Virus record (IMG/VR): IMGVR_UViG_3300030430_004991
Location: 15,298-79,297 of that record
Reading direction: 5' to 3' (one strand)
DNA length: 64,000 nt
DNA from: a virus
Each line of letters opens with the position of its first letter. Position 1 is the stretch's first letter. Both the position numbers and the translations under genes were made by a program. The notes beneath the pieces were generated by a model. It ran no database searches. It was not told where the DNA came from and saw only the letters and a program-made list of their open reading frames with translations. This document shows positions 4,126-47,335 of the stretch, piece after piece.

Positions 4126-4495
4126 TTTTAGGTCTCCATCCTTTTTTCCATCGTTCTTCGCGTCCTTCTACATATTGAATGTAACATTTTTCACAACAGT
4201 CAAACTTTGACATATAAACATCATCATTGGACTTGAAAGAGTAAACATTGCATACAGGACAAGAACGTTTAGAATTCTTCGTAATTAGTTTCTTTGGGAT
4301 AAAAACTCCATTTATCTCTTCCTCATCGTTTACACCAGATTCTTCGTATTTGTAGAATCCTTTGAGTTCTTCTAAATATTCTTTTTCTTTTTCATCGTTC
4401 CAACCCTTTTTTGGGTGCTGGATTGTTTCTGCGCCGTATTTTTCTGTTATGGCTTTCTCAACCTTTACGGCATAATTTGGATCTTTACTTTTCAT
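4118..4495 (-). CDS. hypothetical protein with C4-type zinc finger
   Basis: CPVC...DCCEKC; overlaps both neighbours. Confidence 0.75.
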   Translation of the reverse strand: MKSKDPNYAVKVEKAITEKYGAETIQHPKKGWNDEKEKEYLEELKGFYKYEESGVNDEEEINGVFIPKKLITKNSKRSCPVCNVYSFKSNDDVYMSKFDCCEKCYIQYVEGREERWKKGWRPKNG

Positions 4496-4898
4496 ATTTT
4501 CTTTGCCATTCTTTTGAAATTTTGTCCTCTTTTATTGGCCCACCCTTAGCCCAAGTTCTACATGCTCTGGCGGAGTGGCACTTAAAATGATGCATCCAAC
4601 AATAACCTAATCTTCCTTCTCCATCAGAAGTAGGTCCAGGCATACACTCATCCATTCTAGGTGATATGTCAAACGCCGTACAGTTTCCACACAGAGATTT
4701 TTTTGCAGCCTCTTCTGTTGTGTTCCAATACTCCGCAATGTCTTTCCAGTAATCACCGGGCTCATCAACATTAAGTGGGCCGTACTGAATGTGTTCTGCT
4801 TTTATAGAGGCGTCACGATTTTTTGTATTTAATTTTAAATCTTGTGTCGCCTCAGGGCAAATCATTTTTTTAAGTCTTTTTAAAATTCTTATTTTCAT
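4485..4898 (-). CDS. Cys-rich hypothetical protein (HiPIP-like Cys spacing) with MKIRILK N-terminus
   Basis: CGNC...GYC...C...CRTW; 7 Cys. Confidence 0.7.
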   Translation of the reverse strand: MKIRILKRLKKMICPEATQDLKLNTKNRDASIKAEHIQYGPLNVDEPGDYWKDIAEYWNTTEEAAKKSLCGNCTAFDISPRMDECMPGPTSDGEGRLGYCWMHHFKCHSARACRTWAKGGPIKEDKISKEWQRKYEK

Positions 4899-5287: not shown

Positions 5288-5613
5288 TCTTCCCTCTCAA
5301 TGCCTTTTGATTTTAAGAAATCCTCGGTCTTAACCTTCTTCGAGTCTCTTAAAAACTTATGCTTTTTTTCCTCGAAATTTAGAACGTTTTCAGCAATAGA
5401 AGCGTCTTTGGTTTCCACGAGGTCTTCCAAGTCCTCCACAAGTTCTTCGCGTTGTTTTTCTTCTAAATCTTTCCATTTTTCATAAAATTTTACTTTCTGT
5501 TTCTTTGCGTCTTTTGAGCGTCCAAGCAAATAGAAAGCAATGACAGTAATGATCATTAAGATCCACTGCCAATACTTTATTACAAAATTTACGGTTTTTG
5601 CCCACCAAGTCAT
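5284..5613 (-). CDS. N-terminal TM plus charged coiled-coil protein (i-spanin-like)
   Basis: TM WQWILMIITVIAFYLLG followed by an E/K-rich helix; close to the holin-like gene. Confidence 0.5.
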   Translation of the reverse strand: MTWWAKTVNFVIKYWQWILMIITVIAFYLLGRSKDAKKQKVKFYEKWKDLEEKQREELVEDLEDLVETKDASIAENVLNFEEKKHKFLRDSKKVKTEDFLKSKGIEREE

Positions 5614-5960
5614 TGGTTTTCCGCATTCTCAATTTTCTGCAGAACCATAGCTTTAACGTCTTCGTCAAAATCACTTAAATTATCGCTGACATCCTCGACA
5701 CTAGAAATGTCCCTTAAATCGATTTCTGCGATCGAGCCCCCGGCTTCTATGTATAGGATACCGTAGTCACCATAAACGTCCGCGAGATTTTCCAAACTGG
5801 CGACACCAGTTTCACTCTTGGTATATTTTAATGCTGCTTCAATACTGTCCTCGTCTTGTTCGTCTTGTGAAATCACATCAACATGGACACCATCCGATTC
5901 TGTTAGTCTTGTCAATTCTTCTTTGATTAATTTTTTTAATAATTTTGTTGTTAATTTCAT
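5610..5960 (-). CDS. acidic hypothetical protein with MKLTTKLLKKLIKEEL leader (putative internal head protein)
   Basis: Start moved to ATG 5960 (AAGGA upstream, just after the previous stop); basic amphipathic leader followed by an acidic body. Confidence 0.7.
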   Translation of the reverse strand: MKLTTKLLKKLIKEELTRLTESDGVHVDVISQDEQDEDSIEAALKYTKSETGVASLENLADVYGDYGILYIEAGGSIAEIDLRDISSVEDVSDNLSDFDEDVKAMVLQKIENAENQ

Positions 5961-5964
5961 TTTT

Positions 5965-6228
5965 TTATCCTTTCCAAACTTTAGCAACGTCAATAACTGA
6001 CTGTCCACCAATGTACATGGCAGCAATCATCGCCCAAGTGTCAGGATCGAGTCCGGACCAGATGAGCAAAGCAGTTGCACTAGCAAAAACAAGAAGTTTA
6101 CGAGATACGGCTTTTCCAAGAGCCTCATCAACTACTCCTAGCTTTTGTTCTTTGCAACATTCGCAATGTTCGCAGCAATCACACTTGTGGTCATGCTCGC
6201 AATTTTCCTCACAATTTTCATTATGCAT
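5965..6228 (-). CDS. holin-like two-TM protein with Cys/His-rich N-terminus
   Basis: SRKLLVF-TM1-short loop-TM2-basic tail; first 25 aa contain 8 Cys and 4 His; GGAG SD. Confidence 0.55.
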   Translation of the reverse strand: MHNENCEENCEHDHKCDCCEHCECCKEQKLGVVDEALGKAVSRKLLVFASATALLIWSGLDPDTWAMIAAMYIGGQSVIDVAKVWKG

Positions 6229-8296
6229 TTCTGTTCTCCTTTAAAATTTTAATTTTTATTCTTTTTCTATTTTCTTGAACACTAAAGCTATTGCCTGGTG
6301 TTCCTATATTGGTTTGATACCAATTTATAACATCTTGTTCCGTGAAGTTTAAAAACTTGTAAAATTTATTGATCTTCTCAGGAGTAGCTACAGTACCTTC
6401 TAAGTTTTCTTTTTCCTTTAAAGCAGCGTCTATAAGTTTTTTTGCTGCTTCTTTATCAATGTTATTCTGTCTAAGATAGTTAAATTCTAAATCTTGCACG
6501 AATTTGTCGACTATTTTTTTTCTAATTTCTCCAGCGCCCTTTGTCTTTTCAAACCCTATGGCCGCAGGAGTTCCAATACCAGCGTGTGTTTTTAGACTTT
6601 TTGTCTTTTTGCCAAGAAATACAGGGCTATTTTTAACAATTCTGTACGTGCGAATAATTTGTTTGTTGTCCATCATTTCAACAAAGTCATAAGTTTTTTC
6701 ATAGATTTCATAAAATTTTTGCATTGCCGGTATAAAAACAGCGGCTAATTTTTCACAATCATCATCTGCTGTGTGTGTTTGTTTTGGAGCATTTTCGATA
6801 AATGCTTTCATCAGAGTCTCTAGTTTTCCTTTTGATTTTCCAGATTTTTTTAAATTTTTTAAAATTACCCTTACTTCATCAATTTGAGGCTTGATCTTTA
6901 TAGTGTTGTGTTCACCGATCTCTATAAAATCTTCTATAGCTTTTTTTAGTTTTTTTGTTCTCTCTTCATCTGGTTGTTGTGTATCTAGTATTTCTTGCAT
7001 CTCTTTAATTCGAAAATGTGTACGATATGCTAATCCATAAAAATACACTAGTGTTTTAAAATATTTTATCATCAATGAGAATAAAAATCTCGTATCATAC
7101 ACATAAGAGTTACGAAAATTTTGTGTATTGTTAATCCCGTGAAACTCACATCTTGCAATTACAAAAGGATTGTCAAAAGAAATTATGTTTTGACCAACTA
7201 ATACATAGTCACCATTTGGTTGTGATTGATTCGTTGATGGCGCTCCTTGTTGATCAATAAACTTCATCATGCCCTCAAGCGCTTCTTTCTCTGAGACAGT
7301 GCCTTCGTAACCTTTATTACGATATTTTTTTAACGGAAATTCATCATAATTTGTAAATACTTTATTTTCTTCTGTGGTTTGTTTGAGAAAAAGAATAATT
7401 TTTTCAACAGTACTTTTTACAAAGTCATTCCCTCTATTGTTATAGTATGTTGAAATGCCGCCATCAACAGTATCCTCATTGAAAATATTGTGATAAAAAA
7501 AGATCAAATCTTCTTTAGATGGATTTGTGTTCTCAATTATTTTTTTTAATCTTTCTTTCGGAAGGAGAGGTCCTTCTTCGCCTTGTCCGTCTTTATCTTT
7601 TTCAATCTTTTCGCTTTCTTCTTCGTCTTTATCTTTTTCAATCTTTTCGCTTTCTTCTTCGTCTTTATCTTTTTCAATCTTTTCGCTTTCTTCTTCTTCA
7701 AAATCAATTACTGATATATATTTCTCTACGAATTTTTTAAACGCACTAGCAGTGCCTTTTTTGCCAAGTAGAGCCTTTTTTTTGTTTTTTAGGTTATAGT
7801 GAAGAAAAATATGAAAAAATAATCCTAAAATTGATTTTACATCATCTCTATTTTTAGCGGGTATTTCAAGTTGATCGTCTCGTATAAATTCTTTAAATTC
7901 GGTATATTCATTTTCTGGTGTTTGGTCTAAAATTTTAGCTCTTTTTTCTTTGGCTTTTTTGGATCTATCACTATATTCATCTGTTATGTCGGCCTTTGCG
8001 ACATAGTAATCATTTGGGTTTTCTGCGCTAATTGTGCTTGGGTCACCGTTTGGAGAATATTTTAAAATAGCGATTTGGTGAATCATGTCTGAAATTTGTC
8101 CGAATTCTCCTCTTTTTCTTCGAAGACCTGTTGTTTCAAGGTCGTAAAACAAAAGATCTTTGTTAAATAAACTCTCTAATACTTCTTTTTCTTTAATTAA
8201 AAGACCTAAGTTTCCAAAAAGTTCTTCTACTGGTAGAAGACTTGTCGGAGATTTTCCGGTCCTCTCTGATAATTGTTTTTTGATTCTAATTTTCAT
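6221..8296 (-). CDS. DEDDh 3'-5' exonuclease (DnaQ-like) with large insertions
   Basis: ExoI FYDLETTGL, ExoII VGQNIISFD, YDT, ExoIII HTADDD. Confidence 0.85.
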   Translation of the reverse strand: MKIRIKKQLSERTGKSPTSLLPVEELFGNLGLLIKEKEVLESLFNKDLLFYDLETTGLRRKRGEFGQISDMIHQIAILKYSPNGDPSTISAENPNDYYVAKADITDEYSDRSKKAKEKRAKILDQTPENEYTEFKEFIRDDQLEIPAKNRDDVKSILGLFFHIFLHYNLKNKKKALLGKKGTASAFKKFVEKYISVIDFEEEESEKIEKDKDEEESEKIEKDKDEEESEKIEKDKDGQGEEGPLLPKERLKKIIENTNPSKEDLIFFYHNIFNEDTVDGGISTYYNNRGNDFVKSTVEKIILFLKQTTEENKVFTNYDEFPLKKYRNKGYEGTVSEKEALEGMMKFIDQQGAPSTNQSQPNGDYVLVGQNIISFDNPFVIARCEFHGINNTQNFRNSYVYDTRFLFSLMIKYFKTLVYFYGLAYRTHFRIKEMQEILDTQQPDEERTKKLKKAIEDFIEIGEHNTIKIKPQIDEVRVILKNLKKSGKSKGKLETLMKAFIENAPKQTHTADDDCEKLAAVFIPAMQKFYEIYEKTYDFVEMMDNKQIIRTYRIVKNSPVFLGKKTKSLKTHAGIGTPAAIGFEKTKGAGEIRKKIVDKFVQDLEFNYLRQNNIDKEAAKKLIDAALKEKENLEGTVATPEKINKFYKFLNFTEQDVINWYQTNIGTPGNSFSVQENRKRIKIKILKENRNA
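7589..7696. repeat. perfect 3 x 36-bp in-frame tandem repeat (EEESEKIEKDKD)
   Basis: gtctttatctttttcaatcttttcgctttcttcttc at 7589, 7625 and 7661. Confidence 0.97.
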
Positions 8297-8299
8297 AAT

Positions 8300-8333
8300 A
8301 AAAAATCCTATTTAGCTTTTACACTAAATAGGA
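8300..8333 (-). terminator. 10-bp hairpin plus U6 tract (terminator / RBS-sequestering stem) containing a late motif
   Basis: Minus strand reads TCCTATTTAG-TGTAAAAG-CTAAATAGGA-TTTTTT, 10 nt after the Mre11-Rad50 stop. Confidence 0.75.
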
Positions 8334-8342
8334 CGTTATTTG

Positions 8343-11300
8343 TTAAATGTTTACCTTGGCATAGCCATCAATTTTATCAATGTCTATCGTCATGTCCACC
8401 ACATCTTTTAGATGATCAAGGTGAGAGATAATCAAAACTGTTTTGAATTGGTTCTTTATCATCTGCAATAGTCTTGTGAACCCTTCCATGTGTTCTTGAT
8501 CTAATGCCGTTGCCGGTTCGTCAAGAATAAACAGTTCGGACTTTGGAAGATTGGTTATCGCAATCATCGCAAGACGTATGGCCATCGAAGCAATTGTCTT
8601 TTCTGCTCCTGATCCCATGGACAACGGACGAGCCGCATAGTTGGGATGTTTGATGGAGAGTTCAAGTTTGTTGTCATGATTCTCAAAGAACACTTCAAAG
8701 TCAACAATGTTGGCTAAGATCTTTGCGATCTCTTGATTGATAATCGGTAGCTTTTGCTGAATGATCTCGTATGAAATACCATTAGCATGCATGCAAGTCG
8801 TGTAGATGTCGAAAGCACGATACTCGTTCATAACATCTTTGTATTCATTCTTCTCGTTGTAAAGACCACGAATAACTTCTTTCATTGCCGCTTCTTCCAC
8901 AAGATACTCTTGAGAAAGTTTATTGCATTCCTTCAGTGTTACCTTGTTCTCTTTAATTTTCTTTATAAGAGCCTTTTGGTCTCCGTACAAAGATTCCTTA
9001 TTCTCGATAGCTTCACGATTATCTTCATATTCTTTAGCTTTCGCTTCGAGAGCATCAATCTCGTTAGTTAACAAAGCAATGGTTGCTTCGTTTTTCTGAA
9101 TAGACATTTTTTGTCTTTCCATGTTAATCTCACAAGAGTCAATCTCAGATCTAAGATCATTAAACTTTTGGATGTTATTTTGAATTGTTTTAATGTCATA
9201 CTCTTCAAGTTTAACTGTCGCTTGATGGAGAGACTCGGCGAGATCATCTAACAAATTCATGTTATAGGGCAGATCTGCTTTTGCTTTCTCTGCTTGTTTC
9301 ACAAACTCATTGTCACAACAGAACTCACAGTTTGGATCATACTTGTGATTATGAAGCATCGCTGCTGTTTTGTCTAAGTTTTTTAACACGGTCTTCTGGT
9401 GCTTCACTTGTTGCTCAAAGGCTTTGACAAGTTCTTCTTGGTGCTTTGCTTCTTTTAGCAGAGACATTAGGCGATCATATTGTTTACTGTCGACCTGTTC
9501 ACATGTTTGTTCATAAAACTTTTCTAGTCTCTCAACATGTTCTTGTGAATGTAAATTCTGTGAGAGCAGTTTAGTTTTCTTTGTTTTCTTAAACGCTATC
9601 TCTTTGGAAACTTGATTGATGTCAATAATCTCCGCAGGAATTGCGTCGATTGTTTTCTTAACCTCCGCAAGTTCAAGTTCAAACTTTTCTATAGAACAAG
9701 TCAGTTTTTCACATTTATTAACCTGCTCGTCGATGTCCATTCGAATGTCCTCTAGTGTTTCTGTTTTTTTGCGTATTTGTTCGTCAAACTTCTTGCTCTC
9801 CATGCGCTTAATTACACCACGAAGATCAGCAGCATCCTTACGAGCCAATTTATACTTTTGATCAAAGATCTGCAGGTCTAGAAATTTAGCGATAATTTCT
9901 TTTCGTTTAGTAGAGCCCTCTCGCAAGAAAGACATAGAGTCTAGTTGAGATGCCATTGACGTTAAAAAGAAGTCATCAATTGTACCGAAGTGCTTACGAA
10001 TGTTAGCATCGGTTTCGTTTCTGGTTGTACCATTCTTTGACTCAAAGATACCAGCAGTTGTTTTAGAAAAATCTAGATCTACTTTGGATTCTATTGTTTC
10101 TTTCCCTTTTAGTTTCTTTGTGTACTTATTAAGGTTTCGAGTAATCTCGAAAGCGTCATGACCTGCTTCAAGTTTTATTTTACACTTGGCATACTGTTTG
10201 TTTTGGTTGATGATGTGAACATTCTTTCGCTCTCCTTTCGAAGTTGTATTATAAATGTTAAATAACACACTGTCGATAATAGAAGACTTTCCTGAATAAT
10301 TTTTACCAAAGATTCCGACAAGTCCGGATAATTTTTCAAAATTAATCTTATTCTTCTCGCCGTAGTTGAAGAGGTTATCCCACTCAATCTCTTTAATTTT
10401 CCAAACAACATTACGTGATACCTCCTCTGATTCTTCAACAATTTGATTGTATTTTTTATTTAACTCTAAAATCTTATCCATAACGCCATCGTCCATGTCA
10501 AGTTCGCTGCAATACTGTTTTATGTATTTTTCTTGAACAGAAAGATCTCGCAGGTTCTCATTCAAAACTGCTTTACCTATCAAAGATGTAGACGAAGAGT
10601 TGGTGGTGCCATTGTTAATAAAAGAAACAGAATAGGGTTGCCATTTCTTTTGGCAATAATCACACGCTGCTCTTAATTTCATAGGCGAAATGTTAGAAGA
10701 GGCACGTATTCTAAGACGACAGCCCTTTGGCACTATTGTGTTGGGTACTTGTCCTTCCGGTGTTAAGTCTATTGTCACGAACGGTCTGGGGTTTAGTACT
10801 GAGACATGCTGACAATCCCAATCGTATTTATCTCGTATGTTCCACATGAGAAAACCTTTGTTAATTGACTCGCCAAAGTTTTGTTGAATCGTAGAGCCAG
10901 CATATCTTACTCGTCCTTTGAGATCCATTTTCTGTTGCTTGTGAATGTCACCCAGCATGCTAAAGTCAAAATCGCTGAAAATATCAATAGAATCTTCGCC
11001 TTCTTCAATAGTGTAACCTTGTGAGGTTTGGCATCCGTGAATAGACCCGTGATACAAGCCGATATTAATACACTCTCTGTTAGTCGGTTTAACCCAGTTT
11101 TCTCTATCAAAGACCGATAGAACGTTGAGAGTGATCTTTTCATTTATTTTTGTTTCTCCGGAATTTTTAAGAAGATGAATATTTTTGTGACCCAATGCAT
11201 CTACAATCGGAGAAATTGCATCCTGCCTAGTGTCGTTCTTAAGATTACCATCATGGTTTCCTAGTATAATATAAGTAGGAGCAATGTCTCCCAAGTTATG

Positions 11301-11492
11301 CAAAAAACTTGCACACATTTGGAAAAATTCCGGTGATAATTGCGTTTTAGTGTGTGCGATGTCACCGGTGTGTACGATAATGTCGGGAGACATTTGCCGC
11401 AGTTTTTTATAAAGATCTTCGAACGCTAGTTTGTATTCGTAGTGATACTTTAAATTTCTAATGTGTGTATCTGATATATGTGCTATTTTCAT
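8343..11492 (-). CDS. Mre11/SbcD-Rad50/SbcC (gp47-gp46) fusion nuclease-ATPase
   Basis: Phosphoesterase motifs SDTH, GDIAH, GNHD, YHG, GDIH; Walker A GKNYSGKSS; coiled coil with CEFC hook; signature SMGSGAE; Walker B FILDEP; ISH. Confidence 0.93.
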   Translation of the reverse strand: MKIAHISDTHIRNLKYHYEYKLAFEDLYKKLRQMSPDIIVHTGDIAHTKTQLSPEFFQMCASFLHNLGDIAPTYIILGNHDGNLKNDTRQDAISPIVDALGHKNIHLLKNSGETKINEKITLNVLSVFDRENWVKPTNRECINIGLYHGSIHGCQTSQGYTIEEGEDSIDIFSDFDFSMLGDIHKQQKMDLKGRVRYAGSTIQQNFGESINKGFLMWNIRDKYDWDCQHVSVLNPRPFVTIDLTPEGQVPNTIVPKGCRLRIRASSNISPMKLRAACDYCQKKWQPYSVSFINNGTTNSSSTSLIGKAVLNENLRDLSVQEKYIKQYCSELDMDDGVMDKILELNKKYNQIVEESEEVSRNVVWKIKEIEWDNLFNYGEKNKINFEKLSGLVGIFGKNYSGKSSIIDSVLFNIYNTTSKGERKNVHIINQNKQYAKCKIKLEAGHDAFEITRNLNKYTKKLKGKETIESKVDLDFSKTTAGIFESKNGTTRNETDANIRKHFGTIDDFFLTSMASQLDSMSFLREGSTKRKEIIAKFLDLQIFDQKYKLARKDAADLRGVIKRMESKKFDEQIRKKTETLEDIRMDIDEQVNKCEKLTCSIEKFELELAEVKKTIDAIPAEIIDINQVSKEIAFKKTKKTKLLSQNLHSQEHVERLEKFYEQTCEQVDSKQYDRLMSLLKEAKHQEELVKAFEQQVKHQKTVLKNLDKTAAMLHNHKYDPNCEFCCDNEFVKQAEKAKADLPYNMNLLDDLAESLHQATVKLEEYDIKTIQNNIQKFNDLRSEIDSCEINMERQKMSIQKNEATIALLTNEIDALEAKAKEYEDNREAIENKESLYGDQKALIKKIKENKVTLKECNKLSQEYLVEEAAMKEVIRGLYNEKNEYKDVMNEYRAFDIYTTCMHANGISYEIIQQKLPIINQEIAKILANIVDFEVFFENHDNKLELSIKHPNYAARPLSMGSGAEKTIASMAIRLAMIAITNLPKSELFILDEPATALDQEHMEGFTRLLQMIKNQFKTVLIISHLDHLKDVVDMTIDIDKIDGYAKVNI

Positions 11493-11880: not shown

Positions 11881-11909
11881 ATAATATCACGTTATCTTCG
11901 ACTTGTCAA
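11881..11909 (-). promoter_or_regulatory. sigma70-type early promoter (SprT / Mre11-Rad50)
   Basis: TTGACA-17 nt-TATTAT with TG extended -10. Confidence 0.85.
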
Positions 11910-13661: not shown

Positions 13662-14072
13662 TTATTTTGGGGGAACGTAAGGTTTTTCTTTCTGCACTAA
13701 ACTTTCGGCCCATTTTAAATCCTCTGGTGATGCTTTTTTAAGAAAATCATCAATTGCCTTCAATAAATTTTGGGCATCTAAGTTTAATCTATCGGGTTTT
13801 TCATTCTCAGGTGTTTTTGACACGATTTCCAAATCTTCTAGGGCCTTTGAGTATCCTATCGCTTTATCAATGTCTTTGGTTTTTTTTACTCTATTTTTTG
13901 CAAAAGCGTGTGCTACTTCAACTGTTTTAGCGTCATACCCCTCAACTCCGGCTTGTGCTGGTCTCCCAAGCATTCCGCCCATAGCCAAGCCACCAGCCAA
14001 AGCAATGTCTTTTAAGGACTCTTCTATTTTTTTTATAGTTTCCTTGTTTTCCTTTAAAATTCTTATTTTCAT
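13662..14072 (-). CDS. hypothetical protein with MKIRILKE leader (putative internal head protein)
   Basis: AGGAG SD; leader shared with the 4898 and 8296 genes; Gly/Ala hydrophobic stretch after IEES. Confidence 0.75.
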   Translation of the reverse strand: MKIRILKENKETIKKIEESLKDIALAGGLAMGGMLGRPAQAGVEGYDAKTVEVAHAFAKNRVKKTKDIDKAIGYSKALEDLEIVSKTPENEKPDRLNLDAQNLLKAIDDFLKKASPEDLKWAESLVQKEKPYVPPK

Positions 14073-15241: not shown

Positions 15242-16342
15242 CTAGTAGTCGAGGCGCACTCTGACTGTGAACTCTGTGTCTGATGACTTTTTAAGTGGCT
15301 CACTGAGTTTAGCAGTTGCCAAAAGTTCGTTGTTATCATTGTAAAGCCCAACTGTTGTAATGTACGATACTGGAAGGTCAGAAGATTGAGTTTTCACTCT
15401 AATCTTGCTTCCGGAAAGGTAAGTTGGATTTGTTGAATAGTTGTATTCATTGTGATTAATACGGCAGAAATATACTGTAGAGTTTAATTCCACTGTATTG
15501 TTGAACTGAAGGTTGTAGATTCTAGTCCTTAGATTGTCAGCAAAGCTATCGATTGTTGAGCCGGTTAGTACAGCGTTCAACGGCTCTGATGTTGATGAAG
15601 GTCCACTCATAGAAACATTGTGGAACGAATTATTTAGAATTCCACCAGCGGACGCTTGGTTAAAAATTGAACCAGAAATTACCGCGACACCGGCTTGATA
15701 AAACAAGAGACCAACAGGATAGCGTTGATTGGCGGTAAGCATAGCACTAGATCCAGCAGATGCTGTGGCGTAAAGAATTCCATACTCACCAACTGGGGAG
15801 TTCACAAAATAGCCGTCTGATCCACTAAAATCTGTTATTTTAATTCTATCAGTAAAAACTGCTCCATTCTCAGCATACGCTGGGGTAACCCCGAGTTCCA
15901 GTTCAAAAGTTCCTTTTTTGATTTCATCTTTCGAAAGAAGTCGGGAGTAGTTCATAAAGAAAACATTATCAAGTTTTGTGCCACCTACTATGATGTCACC
16001 GTCTTCATCAAATCGCTGAATAGATCCAGTGTGATCGTAACCAACAAGAACTTGAGCCATTTGATTATAAATGTTTAATTTTTTGGATGCTTGGTTTGCT
16101 ACCGTCAGACTTGATTCGGCACCGATACCAACTGTGATGTCAAAAATGTGGTTTGCGGAAGAACTTAGGTAGGGATAGTCGTATACCGATTGAAACATAC
16201 CATGAGCATAATTCTTGATGTTCTCGGTACCATAGGTTCCAGAAACAATCGTACCAGTTAAAGGAATTGCTTCGTGAAGAAGTGTCCTTGTGTTTGCGAC
16301 ATCTTTTCCGATGTCTAATGATTTGTAAAAACTTTCAGCCAT
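15242..16342 (-). CDS. virion baseplate/tail structural protein
   Basis: C-terminus SYITTVGLYN..ELLATAKLSEPLKK..VRVRLDY, reminiscent of the tail-collar DUF3751 C-terminal half. Confidence 0.65.
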   Translation of the reverse strand: MAESFYKSLDIGKDVANTRTLLHEAIPLTGTIVSGTYGTENIKNYAHGMFQSVYDYPYLSSSANHIFDITVGIGAESSLTVANQASKKLNIYNQMAQVLVGYDHTGSIQRFDEDGDIIVGGTKLDNVFFMNYSRLLSKDEIKKGTFELELGVTPAYAENGAVFTDRIKITDFSGSDGYFVNSPVGEYGILYATASAGSSAMLTANQRYPVGLLFYQAGVAVISGSIFNQASAGGILNNSFHNVSMSGPSSTSEPLNAVLTGSTIDSFADNLRTRIYNLQFNNTVELNSTVYFCRINHNEYNYSTNPTYLSGSKIRVKTQSSDLPVSYITTVGLYNDNNELLATAKLSEPLKKSSDTEFTVRVRLDY

Positions 16343-16352
16343 TATTTTCTCT

Positions 16353-17270
16353 CTATGAAATTATTGATTTAACGAAACGAACAGGGATGTCAACAGAATA
16401 TCCAGTTTTCATCCCTGTGACTCTCACAACGGAGTCGATGTGCCTAACAGATTTGCCCTCTAAAGTTGATGTTCCACCCAATTCTGTGAAAAGGAAAGTG
16501 CTGGTGTTCAGATCAATCGAGGATCCAATTTTAAACTCTAGCCGAGTTCCGCGAGGACCGGCAATTGTTTGACTTTCTGCATTTCTGTCGTTTGTAATTT
16601 GTGTTACAAGTCCTACATCGACAGTATAAAAAGCTATGTTGTCATCGTCGATGTAATCCTCAGGCACCATCTCACCATCTTTAGTTGCTATCTTACCTAG
16701 ACGGTTATCGATTTGTATAATATAAGAATCTTCAATCAAATCCGGATCTAAAGTTTGTTTTGGAGACACTTCTACTGAATCAACTCCTTGATCCAAGCGA
16801 ATGTAATTATCTCCATCTAGAGACTCCCCAAAGATTACACCAATAACAGGTTCTCCGTTATTGTATCCTACCGCGTATAAATTTGCATTATTAGTTGATC
16901 CCTCTGTTTCTGCGTCGACAGCGACCACGAAGGTGCCCAAACTGTGCATTTTAGTATTGGTTCCCAATTGATTAATCTTAACCACAGGTAGGTACAGCAA
17001 ATTTGTTGAAGAATATGAAACTAGTTTTGATTTCACAGACCCAGCATTGTCAGTAAATGCCTCTAAAACAGGAGTTTGAAGTATTTCAACATCATAGTAA
17101 GCAGACCCACTAGGATGCGTTGGATTGTATAATGTATAATTGATTTCATCATCTGCTAGTGCAAATTTTGTAATCTGAAAAGATCCATCTCCTTTAGCCA
17201 GAAGTTTTCTTCCGTGATCTGTTAGAACAGCGTCTAAAATAATATCACCGCTATTGTCTAGAAAGCCCAT
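16353..17270 (-). CDS. virion structural protein (paralog of 22002..22946)
   Basis: N-terminus AVLTDHGRKLLAKG..ITKFALADDEINY. Confidence 0.65.
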   Translation of the reverse strand: MGFLDNSGDIILDAVLTDHGRKLLAKGDGSFQITKFALADDEINYTLYNPTHPSGSAYYDVEILQTPVLEAFTDNAGSVKSKLVSYSSTNLLYLPVVKINQLGTNTKMHSLGTFVVAVDAETEGSTNNANLYAVGYNNGEPVIGVIFGESLDGDNYIRLDQGVDSVEVSPKQTLDPDLIEDSYIIQIDNRLGKIATKDGEMVPEDYIDDDNIAFYTVDVGLVTQITNDRNAESQTIAGPRGTRLEFKIGSSIDLNTSTFLFTELGGTSTLEGKSVRHIDSVVRVTGMKTGYSVDIPVRFVKSIIS

Positions 17271-46323: not shown

Positions 46324-47013
46324 TTAGATTTTTGCATTATACCAGTCATCTCTAAATAATTTGTATTTTTTTCTAAACTTATTTAATTGAGTGACAATCT
46401 GCTTGGTGTTCATACCGGTTATCTCACGAAGATAAAGATAGATAGCTTTTTTATTAAAAATTTCAATCTCTTCAACAGAGTTTAACACTATTCTAATTGC
46501 TTCATAAACTTTTTTTTCGTTTTCATTCATGTCATTTGTGCCCCATCCGTCCATCTCTGTTGTAAGATGTTGCCAGAATTCTTTCTTCTCTCTGTCTTTG
46601 TGATAAGGATTGTAATACACAATTTGCTCGAAACTTAGTTCTTTCAATGCATCTTCATAATCTACTTCTCTTTTTGCCCTCTTGGTTCTTTGTTTTACTT
46701 TGTGTATAAACCAGTTCTTAGTTATCACACTAAAATAGGAAAAGGCTTTTGATCCCTTATTGGGATCGTATTTTGCTAGTATAGTAGTAAGCCAAATTTT
46801 GCAATCTTCTCTGAGTTCGTCAATGTTGGGCAAAGTTGTAAATTTGTATGTAAAAACAATCTTATCAACCATTTCACTAAAAGCAGGTTGAATTAATTTT
46901 ATGTAAAGGTCTGTTTTTTCTTTTCGGCACTCTGATGTCGCGTACTTAACTATCGCGTCTTCGTGTACCTGCGTAAAATACATCCTTTTGTTGGGGTTCC
47001 GGCGTCTCGGCAT
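46324..47013 (-). CDS. gp55: late-transcription sigma factor (T4 gp55-like)
   Basis: YF..., KYDPNKGSKAFSYFSVITKNWFI (region 2-like); likely start ATG 47013 after a GAGG SD. Confidence 0.75.
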   Translation of the reverse strand: MPRRRNPNKRMYFTQVHEDAIVKYATSECRKEKTDLYIKLIQPAFSEMVDKIVFTYKFTTLPNIDELREDCKIWLTTILAKYDPNKGSKAFSYFSVITKNWFIHKVKQRTKRAKREVDYEDALKELSFEQIVYYNPYHKDREKKEFWQHLTTEMDGWGTNDMNENEKKVYEAIRIVLNSVEEIEIFNKKAIYLYLREITGMNTKQIVTQLNKFRKKYKLFRDDWYNAKI

Positions 47014-47335
47014 TTGTGTTTTCCTCTTGTTGTGGCACATCTTCTTCTTCAAATTCTTCTAGAAAAAATTCTGGATCTTCATAATCCTCTAAAATGTTAC
47101 CAATAGACACGGTGTGGTCTATCAGAAACTTTAAAGTTTCATCTCCGTAAAACATTTCCATGGAATAAACAGATTTTAAATGCGCTCGATAATTAGCAAT
47201 GATTTCAGACACATCCCCTATATTATCGTATATAAAAGCAAGTTTTGTTGTGAGTTGACGAGAATACCAATACATAAGTCCGTTAAAAATTAACGAAATT
47301 GCTAATGCTATTGATATTATTACTATACTACTCAT
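46946..47335 (-). CDS. hypothetical membrane-anchored protein
   Basis: N-terminal TM IVIISIALAISLIFNGLMYW, EMFYGDETL, acidic tail. Confidence 0.7.
   Translation of the reverse strand: MSSIVIISIALAISLIFNGLMYWYSRQLTTKLAFIYDNIGDVSEIIANYRAHLKSVYSMEMFYGDETLKFLIDHTVSIGNILEDYEDPEFFLEEFEEEDVPQQEENTNAETPEPQQKDVFYAGTRRRDS

Follow-up and report, generated by a model that had tools for sequence, protein, structure and literature searches.

Hairpins that sequester the ribosome-binding site (RBS) are known from genes e, soc, 49, and I-TevI of bacteriophage T4, in which a late promoter lies in the DNA encoding the 5′ strand of the hairpin (PMC3014915), and composite promoter-terminator cassettes, the promoter early stem-loop elements (PeSLs), have been described in T4-like phages (PMC2839356, PMC4122927). 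The T4 capsid targeting sequence (CTS) MKTYQEFIAE is a cleavable leader of ~10 aa that ends in IAE and is common to diverse internal head proteins (PMC8442874); it can bring foreign proteins, a nuclease among them, into the head (PMC8442874, PMC3012670), gp21-type proteases cleave after Glu (PMC5694885, PMC8442874, PMC3012670), and T4 Alt is cut at both ends, at ITE-6 and LTE-619 (PMC5694885). The DNA analyzed here was a 64,000-nt stretch (positions 15,298 to 79,297) of IMG/VR virus record IMGVR_UViG_3300030430_004991, hereafter the window, which was part of a 79-kb viral contig (L009); the elements in question were a minus-strand exonuclease gene (6221..8296, 691 aa, split DEDDh fold) and a hairpin cassette (8305..8334, minus strand) separating it from a fused Mre11-Rad50 gene. 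The overall best explanation was a late-gated exonuclease with head-loading tags, for which we consider the chances evenly balanced.

The minus-strand Rad50 stop codon TAA (8345-8343) was followed by a hairpin composed of the 5′ arm TCCTATTTAG (8333-8324), the 8-nt loop TGTAAAAG (8323-8316), and the 3′ arm CTAAATAGGA (8315-8306), plus a G8334-U8305 wobble pair, and the whole was read as a composite intrinsic terminator/late promoter. The 5′ arm contained CTATTTA (8325..8331), a candidate late-promoter core, and the 3′ arm contained AGGA (8306..8309), the sole Shine-Dalgarno (SD)-like element of the exonuclease gene, 9 nt before its ATG; most of this spacer was taken up by a U6 tract following the stem as terminator tail (8300..8305), after which came ATT and the exonuclease ATG (8296-8294), 3 nt past the U6. 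An earlier note on this DNA had described the same layout (CTATTTA in the 5′ arm, AGGA in the 3′ arm, U6, and the ATG 3 nt on), and every element was indeed where that note had put it. Since the ATG abutted the U tract, the only SD-like AGGA was that of the 3′ arm; no further purine-rich SD-like element was present between the stem and the ATG, and an in-frame TAA (8314-8312) ruled out an earlier start. Folding gave -14.9 kcal/mol for the 37-nt hairpin (z = -6.3; none of 200 shuffled sequences did as well) and -15.8 kcal/mol for the 91-nt context (z = -3.3), where an outer AAUAA/UUAUU helix extended to position -4; the hairpin downstream of Rad50 was also listed by the terminator scan. A search of Rfam for a known RNA family yielded only a chance-level RsaJ row (E 0.31). 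The computed unpaired probability of AGGA was 0.00 in Rad50 read-through RNA and 0.52 in RNA starting at the loop, the leader of which was almost unstructured (-2.5 kcal/mol), and an RBS lock is plausible here on this modeling.

Sequence comparison was applied to a set of ~100 related viral contigs: 80 loci were gathered via the Rad50 C terminus (56-98% identity), and the sequence past the stop codon was read in each, giving 67 distinct downstream sequences. Conservation of the stem in relatives, on which the idea of the earlier note was to stand or fall, was borne out: CTANTTA was found within 70 nt past the Rad50 stop in 39 of the 67 sequences and took the form of a hairpin in 34. Among these 34 cassettes, the 5′ arm CCTATTTAG was identical in 33 and the loop TGTAAAAG in 24, while the 3′ arm was perfectly complementary in only 17; the T-run was T6-T9 in most cassettes and was broken up in one subclade. 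A 36-sequence alignment had 91.7% of its cells paired, two basal stem pairs covaried (AU, GC, UA, and CG, with 18 double changes at one pair), two central pairs were broken in 14 sequences solely through 3′-arm changes, and all hairpin variants folded with -12.6 to -14.9 kcal/mol. Because stem pairing and stability were kept and the 5′ arm was nearly invariant while the 3′ arm drifted, the cassette is under two joint constraints, namely a stable stem and a specific 5′-arm sequence. The identical palindrome was also detected by a pattern scan in 27 viral contigs, ~22 of which shared the same flanks (Rad50 last bases, spacer, hairpin, and T-run). Loci L093-L122, a subclade with 56-59% Rad50 identity, had CTATTTAGG as the 3′ arm, a second direct copy of the motif 17 nt apart from the first; a longer G+C stem base made good the two central mismatches in this subclade. 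CTATTTA was kept after Rad50 where the hairpin was built differently (L052 and L073) or absent (L079 and L108).

In most relatives, the hairpin stood upstream of other genes with their own SD (GGAG), and the genes after the cassette included several unrelated ones (those whose products start with MHNE/MENE, MKLT, or MTREEF, and others). This argues that its primary role would be that of a terminator/late-promoter boundary instead of an exonuclease-specific device, and the sequence comparison gives good support to a conserved, clade-wide terminator plus late-promoter cassette, which would generally serve to set off the late block from the sigma70-driven SprT/Mre11-Rad50 unit. Two near-identical cassette copies, including the last bases of Rad50, flanked an inserted gene in L018/L055, L039/L070, and L012 (103 and 762), and one copy was present in the window; such paired copies around inserted genes suggest cassette-mediated gene shuffling similar to that of T4 PeSLs.

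CTATTTA itself was biased toward the coding strand in the contig of the window, with 12 copies against 4 on the other strand. Five copies were intergenic, including those before the scaffold gene, a fiber-like gene, a 305-aa gene (16353-17270), and the exonuclease gene; two further copies lay 24 nt upstream of the likely start codon of a 305-aa gene (the sixth) and 64 nt upstream of the next start (the seventh). All 18 scaffold orthologues had CTATTTA ~32 nt ahead of the start codon, and all 8 relatives of the 305-aa structural gene (49-83% identity) kept CTA(T/A/C)TTA at 20-30 nt from theirs in otherwise diverged spacers; across relatives, the distance from CTATTTA to the tail sheath, tail tube, scaffold, and fiber genes downstream of it was 18-40 nt. 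The 141-kb relative G001 had a 45:5 strand bias of CTAWTTA toward the coding strand, and 21 copies were located within 75 nt upstream of starts versus ~3 expected from sequence share; the genes behind the motif were those for tail sheath (PHROG E 1.6e-60), tail tube (PHROG E 1.1e-22), scaffold, fiber-like proteins, and the exonuclease, and four genes for MKLT-starting proteins lay behind CTATTTA. The recurrence before sheath, tube, scaffold, and fiber genes led us to read CTATTTA as the late promoter of this phage, and CTA(T/A)TTA is probably the late promoter of the clade. The earlier note had called CTATTTA a late motif, and by its position before virion genes in the contig, in relatives, and in G001, it is placed as a phage-specific promoter of such genes would be. 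The cassette contained no -35/-10 pair, and the sigma70-like promoters of the phage looked different: those of the replication genes had the form TTGACAA..TGnTATAAT and were located at 11909, 13101, and 13658. The T4-type element TATAAATA was also considered as the late promoter and rejected, as none of its six coding-strand copies in the window preceded a structural gene. A different arrangement was seen at L009:4150-4215 (minus strand), before a 567-aa fiber-like gene: CTATTTA came first, a small terminator-like hairpin (AGACC-TTGT-GGTCT plus T7) second, and the likely ATG (MAYKFQ..) third, the order of CTATTTA and hairpin being the reverse of that in the Rad50 cassette.

Another account takes the hairpin as a mere intrinsic terminator and 3′-end stabilizer of the Rad50 mRNA with an incidental CTATTTA, the exonuclease being made at a low level from read-through or from a weak sigma70-like site at 8398-8371. 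The hairpin has a textbook terminator shape (12-bp stem then U6, 10 nt past the stop codon), the covariation of the basal stem indicates selection for pairing, and the promoter-like site, with 10 of 12 matches, lies within the 3′ end of Rad50; however, a plain terminator would not hold one arm invariant while the other drifts, the motif stays where the hairpin differs or is missing and recurs before sheath, tube, scaffold, and fiber genes, and in most relatives the hairpin and the gene that follows it lie too close together for another promoter to fit. We regard this account as improbable.

With the cassette taken as terminator plus late promoter, the lock on the exonuclease RBS would be a local elaboration of a general boundary cassette. 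The order hairpin, T-run, ATG without a separate SD was found in three exonuclease lineages (the window, L058, and L012), and also before one MKLT gene (L055) and a 300-aa MKIRI gene (L105); the exonuclease gene of L014 had a variant hairpin with CTAATTA. Late expression of the exonuclease is likely, to judge from the sequence context.

The exonuclease carried the catalytic motifs of the DEDDh (DnaQ) superfamily, distributed over a long protein: (i) Exo I, with D-x-E as D52-L-E54 (8143-8135, minus strand); (ii) Exo II, with D375 (7174-7172, minus strand); and (iii) Exo III, with H508..D513 (6775-6758, minus strand) as H-x4-D of the 'h' subtype. D52, E54, D375, H508, and D513 were invariant across 24 sequences, and Pfam RNase_T covered residues 50-163 only (E 2.8e-08). 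An AlphaFold2 model based on 24 sequences (mean pLDDT 78.9, pTM 0.78) assembled a complete DnaQ fold from residues 47..526, and VIA-align superposed it on Pol III epsilon with Z 14.3 over 167 of 174 residues at a root mean square deviation of 2.8; TREX1, RNase T, ExoI, and T4 DexA were close behind (Z 11-14.3 across the set). Foldseek with the whole model gave only weak matches and none below E 0.001 because the fold was split, whereas VIA-align recovered it. The splitting was due to large helical inserts, with ~320 residues separating Exo I from Exo II and ~130 separating Exo II from Exo III; past the exonuclease fold came a C-terminal domain, also helical. The protein is accordingly classed as a putative 3′-5′ exonuclease of the DEDDh (DnaQ) superfamily, as the earlier note had proposed; its invariant catalytic residues and the whole predicted DnaQ fold bear out that assignment. 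The family was small, with 27 matches at E <= 0.001 in a full HMMER scan of 1.84 billion representatives and no match against PHROGs; a viral contig scan with the single exonuclease protein found nothing, and an alignment-based scan found the homologues. A disordered insert of the protein was encoded by a perfect tandem repeat of 3 × 36 nt (EEESEKIEKDKD ×3; 7588..7696, minus strand; 100% matches in Tandem Repeats Finder). This region was an alignment gap in all relatives, with pLDDT <50 for residues 202-240, and its absence from all homologues makes it probably a recent expansion.

Both ends of the exonuclease lay outside the fold and had a common design. The N-terminal leader MKIRIKKQLSE (residues 1-11; 8264..8296, minus strand) ended in L-x-E with an invariant E11, and the protein ended VQENRKRIKIKILKENRNA, its C-terminal segment (6224..6280, minus strand) comprising V-Q-E (residues 673-675) and then the basic tail NRKRIKIKILKENRNA (residues 676-691); the two terminal motifs that the earlier note had reported were thus both present. 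All 23 full-length N termini of the family followed M-[KR]-[ILV]-[KR]-[ILV], a few basic residues, and [LIV]-x-E-[RKM], and nearly all C termini had [LIVMF]-x-E and then a basic K/I-rich tail of 12-35 residues, down to 23% identity; E11 and E675 were as invariant as the catalytic residues. Residues 1-7 (pLDDT <50) and 668-691 were disordered in the model. The idea that the N- and C-terminal K/I strands pair together was rejected, since AlphaFold2 left these two segments disordered and apart.

A similar leader was carried by two other window proteins, MKIRILKRLKK (4485-4898) and MKIRILKENK (13662-14072), and across the loci around Rad50 MKI(R/K)I was found on at least five unrelated families of 136, 137, 165-233, 279, and 300 aa. 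In most of these families [ILVM]-x-E came next, and in 9 of 9 members of the 165-233-aa family it was followed by A-A. The first 20 nt were identical in the two unrelated window genes (4879-4898 and 14053-14072, minus strand; 137 and 136 aa, MKIRILK..), and the C-terminal codons of the exonuclease (KIKILKEN) closely resembled this 20-nt start. Selection on the MKI(R/K)I start at the nucleotide or translation level, as a common initiation region or a recombination handle for gene shuffling, could account for such identity without any protein targeting. The exactly shared 20 nt of these two genes (starts 4898 and 14072) speak for it, as do the AAGGA that leader-bearing genes of the clade have in common ~10 nt before the ATG, the cassette duplicates flanking inserted genes, and the general knowledge that A-rich codons past the AUG favor initiation; against this, leader codons vary synonymously (AAA/AAG and ATT/ATA/ATC), a sign that the peptide itself is selected, the exonuclease C terminus, where initiation is irrelevant, has the motif again, and the hydrophobic-x-Glu end of the leader is conserved. 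We regard selection at the nucleotide or translation level as very improbable.

The phage also encoded the protease that a cleavable head-targeting leader would call for. An S77 (gp21-family) prohead protease was located at L009:12704-13318 (Pfam PF03420 E 3.2e-32, PHROG 207 E 8.8e-60), and such a protease was also present in all four other contigs of at least 16 kb with an exonuclease homologue (G001-G004). The scaffold protein (L009:274-1485) was very acidic, and the basic leader could bind to it for this reason. A second shared leader, MKLTxxxLKxIIKEEL, was observed in loci L010-L124 around Rad50, where 96 distinct proteins, 62-395 aa long and otherwise unrelated, began with it, as well as on the product of window gene 5610-5960 (minus strand) and on a 68-aa protein encoded beside the protease (L009:13296-13502, minus strand); it may be another head-targeting or assembly helix.

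We infer a mechanism that spans promoter activity and its timing, termination, the lock in vivo, cleavage, packaging, and a role after injection. As RNA, the cassette would form the intrinsic terminator at the end of the SprT/Mre11-Rad50 unit, which is driven by sigma70; at the DNA level, the 5′ arm with CTATTTA would most likely act as a late promoter. Rad50 read-through transcripts would be translationally closed, and those begun at or after the loop would be open. The flexible basic tails bounded by the invariant [LIVMF]-x-E would serve as recognition and cleavage signals for the gp21-type prohead protease, and the exonuclease would, like T4 Alt, enter proheads and have both ends cut back. 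From the sequence pattern, we give tag-directed processing and head loading somewhat less than an even chance of being right. The wider proposal is held tentatively and with some doubt: the clade would run a cargo-loading system with two cleavable leader classes, MKI(R/K)I..[ILV]xE and MKLTxxxLKxIIKEEL, on hypervariable late proteins encoded between Rad50 and terminase, one cargo being the split DEDDh exonuclease of 80 kDa, with tags that are cut off at either end, which the head would store until it is injected along with the DNA. The late-only expression and the packaging put forward in the earlier note are inferences, and the anti-defense role that it raised for the injected protein is speculation.

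The main rival is that the late-made exonuclease stays in the cytoplasm, where it would serve recombination-dependent replication, host DNA recycling, or the clearing of DNA ends before packaging, its uncleaved tails binding DNA or a partner; its comparators are T4 DexA and the late-gated endonuclease VII (gene 49). The gene was always located within the Rad50-to-terminase interval, in several lineages directly after Rad50 (two genes lay between them in distant lineages), its structural neighbors are DNA exonucleases (Pol III epsilon, TREX1, ExoI, and T4 DexA), tails of alternating K and I might do no more than bind nucleic acid, the residues past E11 are conserved and pack on the body, and T4 gene 49 uses the hairpin/late-promoter logic, yet its product is not an injected protein (PMC3014915). 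Cytoplasmic action would nevertheless leave three things unexplained: the common leader on at least five unrelated proteins, most with [ILVM]-x-E and then A-A; the Glu near either end, which varies no more than the catalytic residues do; and the neighborhood of variable genes with a second shared leader. We consider it an unlikely but serious contender. The exonuclease gene is a member of a probably late, leader-bearing, hypervariable gene set adjoining head genes, and in this setting cargo loading fits better than a fixed partnership with Rad50.

Several points weigh against the late-gated, head-loaded exonuclease. The lock was not kept across the exonuclease family: L013 had its own GGAG after the hairpin, the exonuclease genes of L063, L010, and L011 lacked the cassette and were coupled to Rad50 by a TTG start 3 nt past its stop, and those of L016 and L017 overlapped a different upstream gene. 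The hairpin gate of the earlier note is thus plausible for the window, where the sole SD-like element would be hidden in long transcripts, and fails as a family-wide device. Throughout the whole loci L002 and L010, SprT through Rad50, the exonuclease gene, and the small genes up to TerL abutted or overlapped, with no cassette and no intergenic gap; the exonuclease may consequently be co-expressed with the replication genes there, and the early/late boundary in this lineage must be organized differently. As for the tags, the 137-aa leader family (4485-4898) had no conserved [ILV]-x-E past the leader, and the C-terminal form was restricted to the exonuclease family, with no convincing instance elsewhere among 1868 open reading frames (ORFs). 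The earlier note had seen one tag on other small proteins as well; this applies to the N-terminal leader on the two further window proteins, and the C-terminal form is confined to the exonuclease family. The segment past E11 (ERYxxSPTS) was conserved and modeled as packing on the body, so E11 could be structural instead of a cleavage site. The leader was strongly basic (MKIRIKRK..), resembling MKTYQEFIAE in no more than its initial MK, its length, and its final [LI]-x-E, and a processive exonuclease stored beside the phage's own DNA needs some restraint. The candidate for a late sigma factor, ORF 46324-47052 (minus strand; 242 aa, probably 219 aa from an internal ATG), was unconfirmed: its nearest named Atlas clusters were phage RNA polymerase sigma factors (score 0.97), which is a lead only, and its identity as gp55 was rejected, as it had no Pfam or PHROG match and only hypothetical proteins were retrieved by tblastn.

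If the explanation is true, a large group of uncultured ocean phages uses a late-promoter motif differing from T4's TATAAATA, and it has a composite terminator/late-promoter cassette that separates early from late genes and brings about gene shuffling. Injected proteins could then be recognized straight from sequence by their basic, protease-bounded leader, and the exonuclease, as a natural virion-delivered nuclease, would join the short list of phage enzymes delivered with DNA (Alt, virion RNA polymerases, and Dar proteins). To our knowledge, no naturally packaged DEDDh exonuclease has been described.

The genes of the window were nearly all on the minus strand, and the phage had a T4-type head module with a portal (Pfam Portal_T4 E 3e-76) and a T4-type TerL; an acidic scaffold gene and the N terminus of a gp23-like capsid protein were found just outside the window. 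The closest isolates by portal were Flavobacterium phage immuto and Microcystis phage Mel-JY01, with identity of only 38-41%, and the region and the exonuclease protein had no match by blastn and tblastn in ~50,000 isolate phage genomes. The exonuclease represents a small family restricted to one clade of uncultured marine T4-like myophages. Upstream, the 3′ end of the fused Mre11-Rad50 (SbcCD-like) gene (8343..11492, minus strand, 1049 aa; Pfam Metallophos, SMC_N, and AAA_23; PHROG SbcC-like) adjoined the cassette; Mre11 and Rad50 were in a single ORF, and this fusion was kept in relatives (1043-1065 aa). It was preceded by an SprT-like protease gene, with which it is predicted to be transcribed from a near-consensus sigma70-like promoter at 11909-11881 (11 of 12 matches with TG in the promoter scan). 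Downstream, a Cys-rich 87-aa gene (5965..6228, minus strand) overlapped the exonuclease stop with its ATG, and its AAGGAG SD was contained in the last codons of the exonuclease gene; in relatives without the exonuclease, the Cys-rich gene came directly after the cassette (hairpin, then GGAG plus ATGCAT.. or ATGGAAAAC..). The Rad50-to-TerL interval contained small membrane proteins, Cys-rich proteins, and many variable genes.

The cassette resembles the hairpins of T4 e, soc, 49, and I-TevI, and the likeness to e, soc, and 49 drawn in the earlier note agrees with the arrangement described in PMC3014915: long transcripts have their SD inside a helix (here by computation), a late-type promoter element (here a candidate one) in the 5′ arm would give late transcripts without that arm, and the gated gene encodes a putative nuclease, as 49 and I-TevI do. 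It differs from them in that (i) the promoter core is CTA(T/A)TTA and not TATAAATA, (ii) the hairpin doubles as a putative terminator with a U tail and recurs as a cassette across the clade, and (iii) gating is predicted for only part of the lineages in the gene family. Like PeSLs, the cassette is a short conserved stem-loop plus promoter unit edging a hyperplastic region, with near-identical copies flanking inserted genes (L018/L055, L039/L070, and L012) and with downstream genes that differ between close relatives; unlike PeSLs, which carry an early sigma70 promoter, it carries an element found before virion genes and includes the last bases of the Rad50 gene. The leader of ~10-15 aa is, like the T4 CTS, common to unrelated, highly variable proteins, and as in the CTS and Alt it ends in hydrophobic-x-Glu, the specificity of a gp21-type protease such as the phage encodes; [LIVMF]-x-E stands at both ends of the exonuclease, as in Alt, where trimming would take place. 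The differences are that the cargo would be an 80-kDa exonuclease and that one leader family lacks the Glu site. The exonuclease shares the DxE, D, and H-x4-D motifs and the fold with Pol III epsilon/DnaQ, TREX1, RNase T, ExoI, and T4 DexA and differs from these DEDDh exonucleases in its large inserts, its extra C-terminal helical domain, and its terminal tags.

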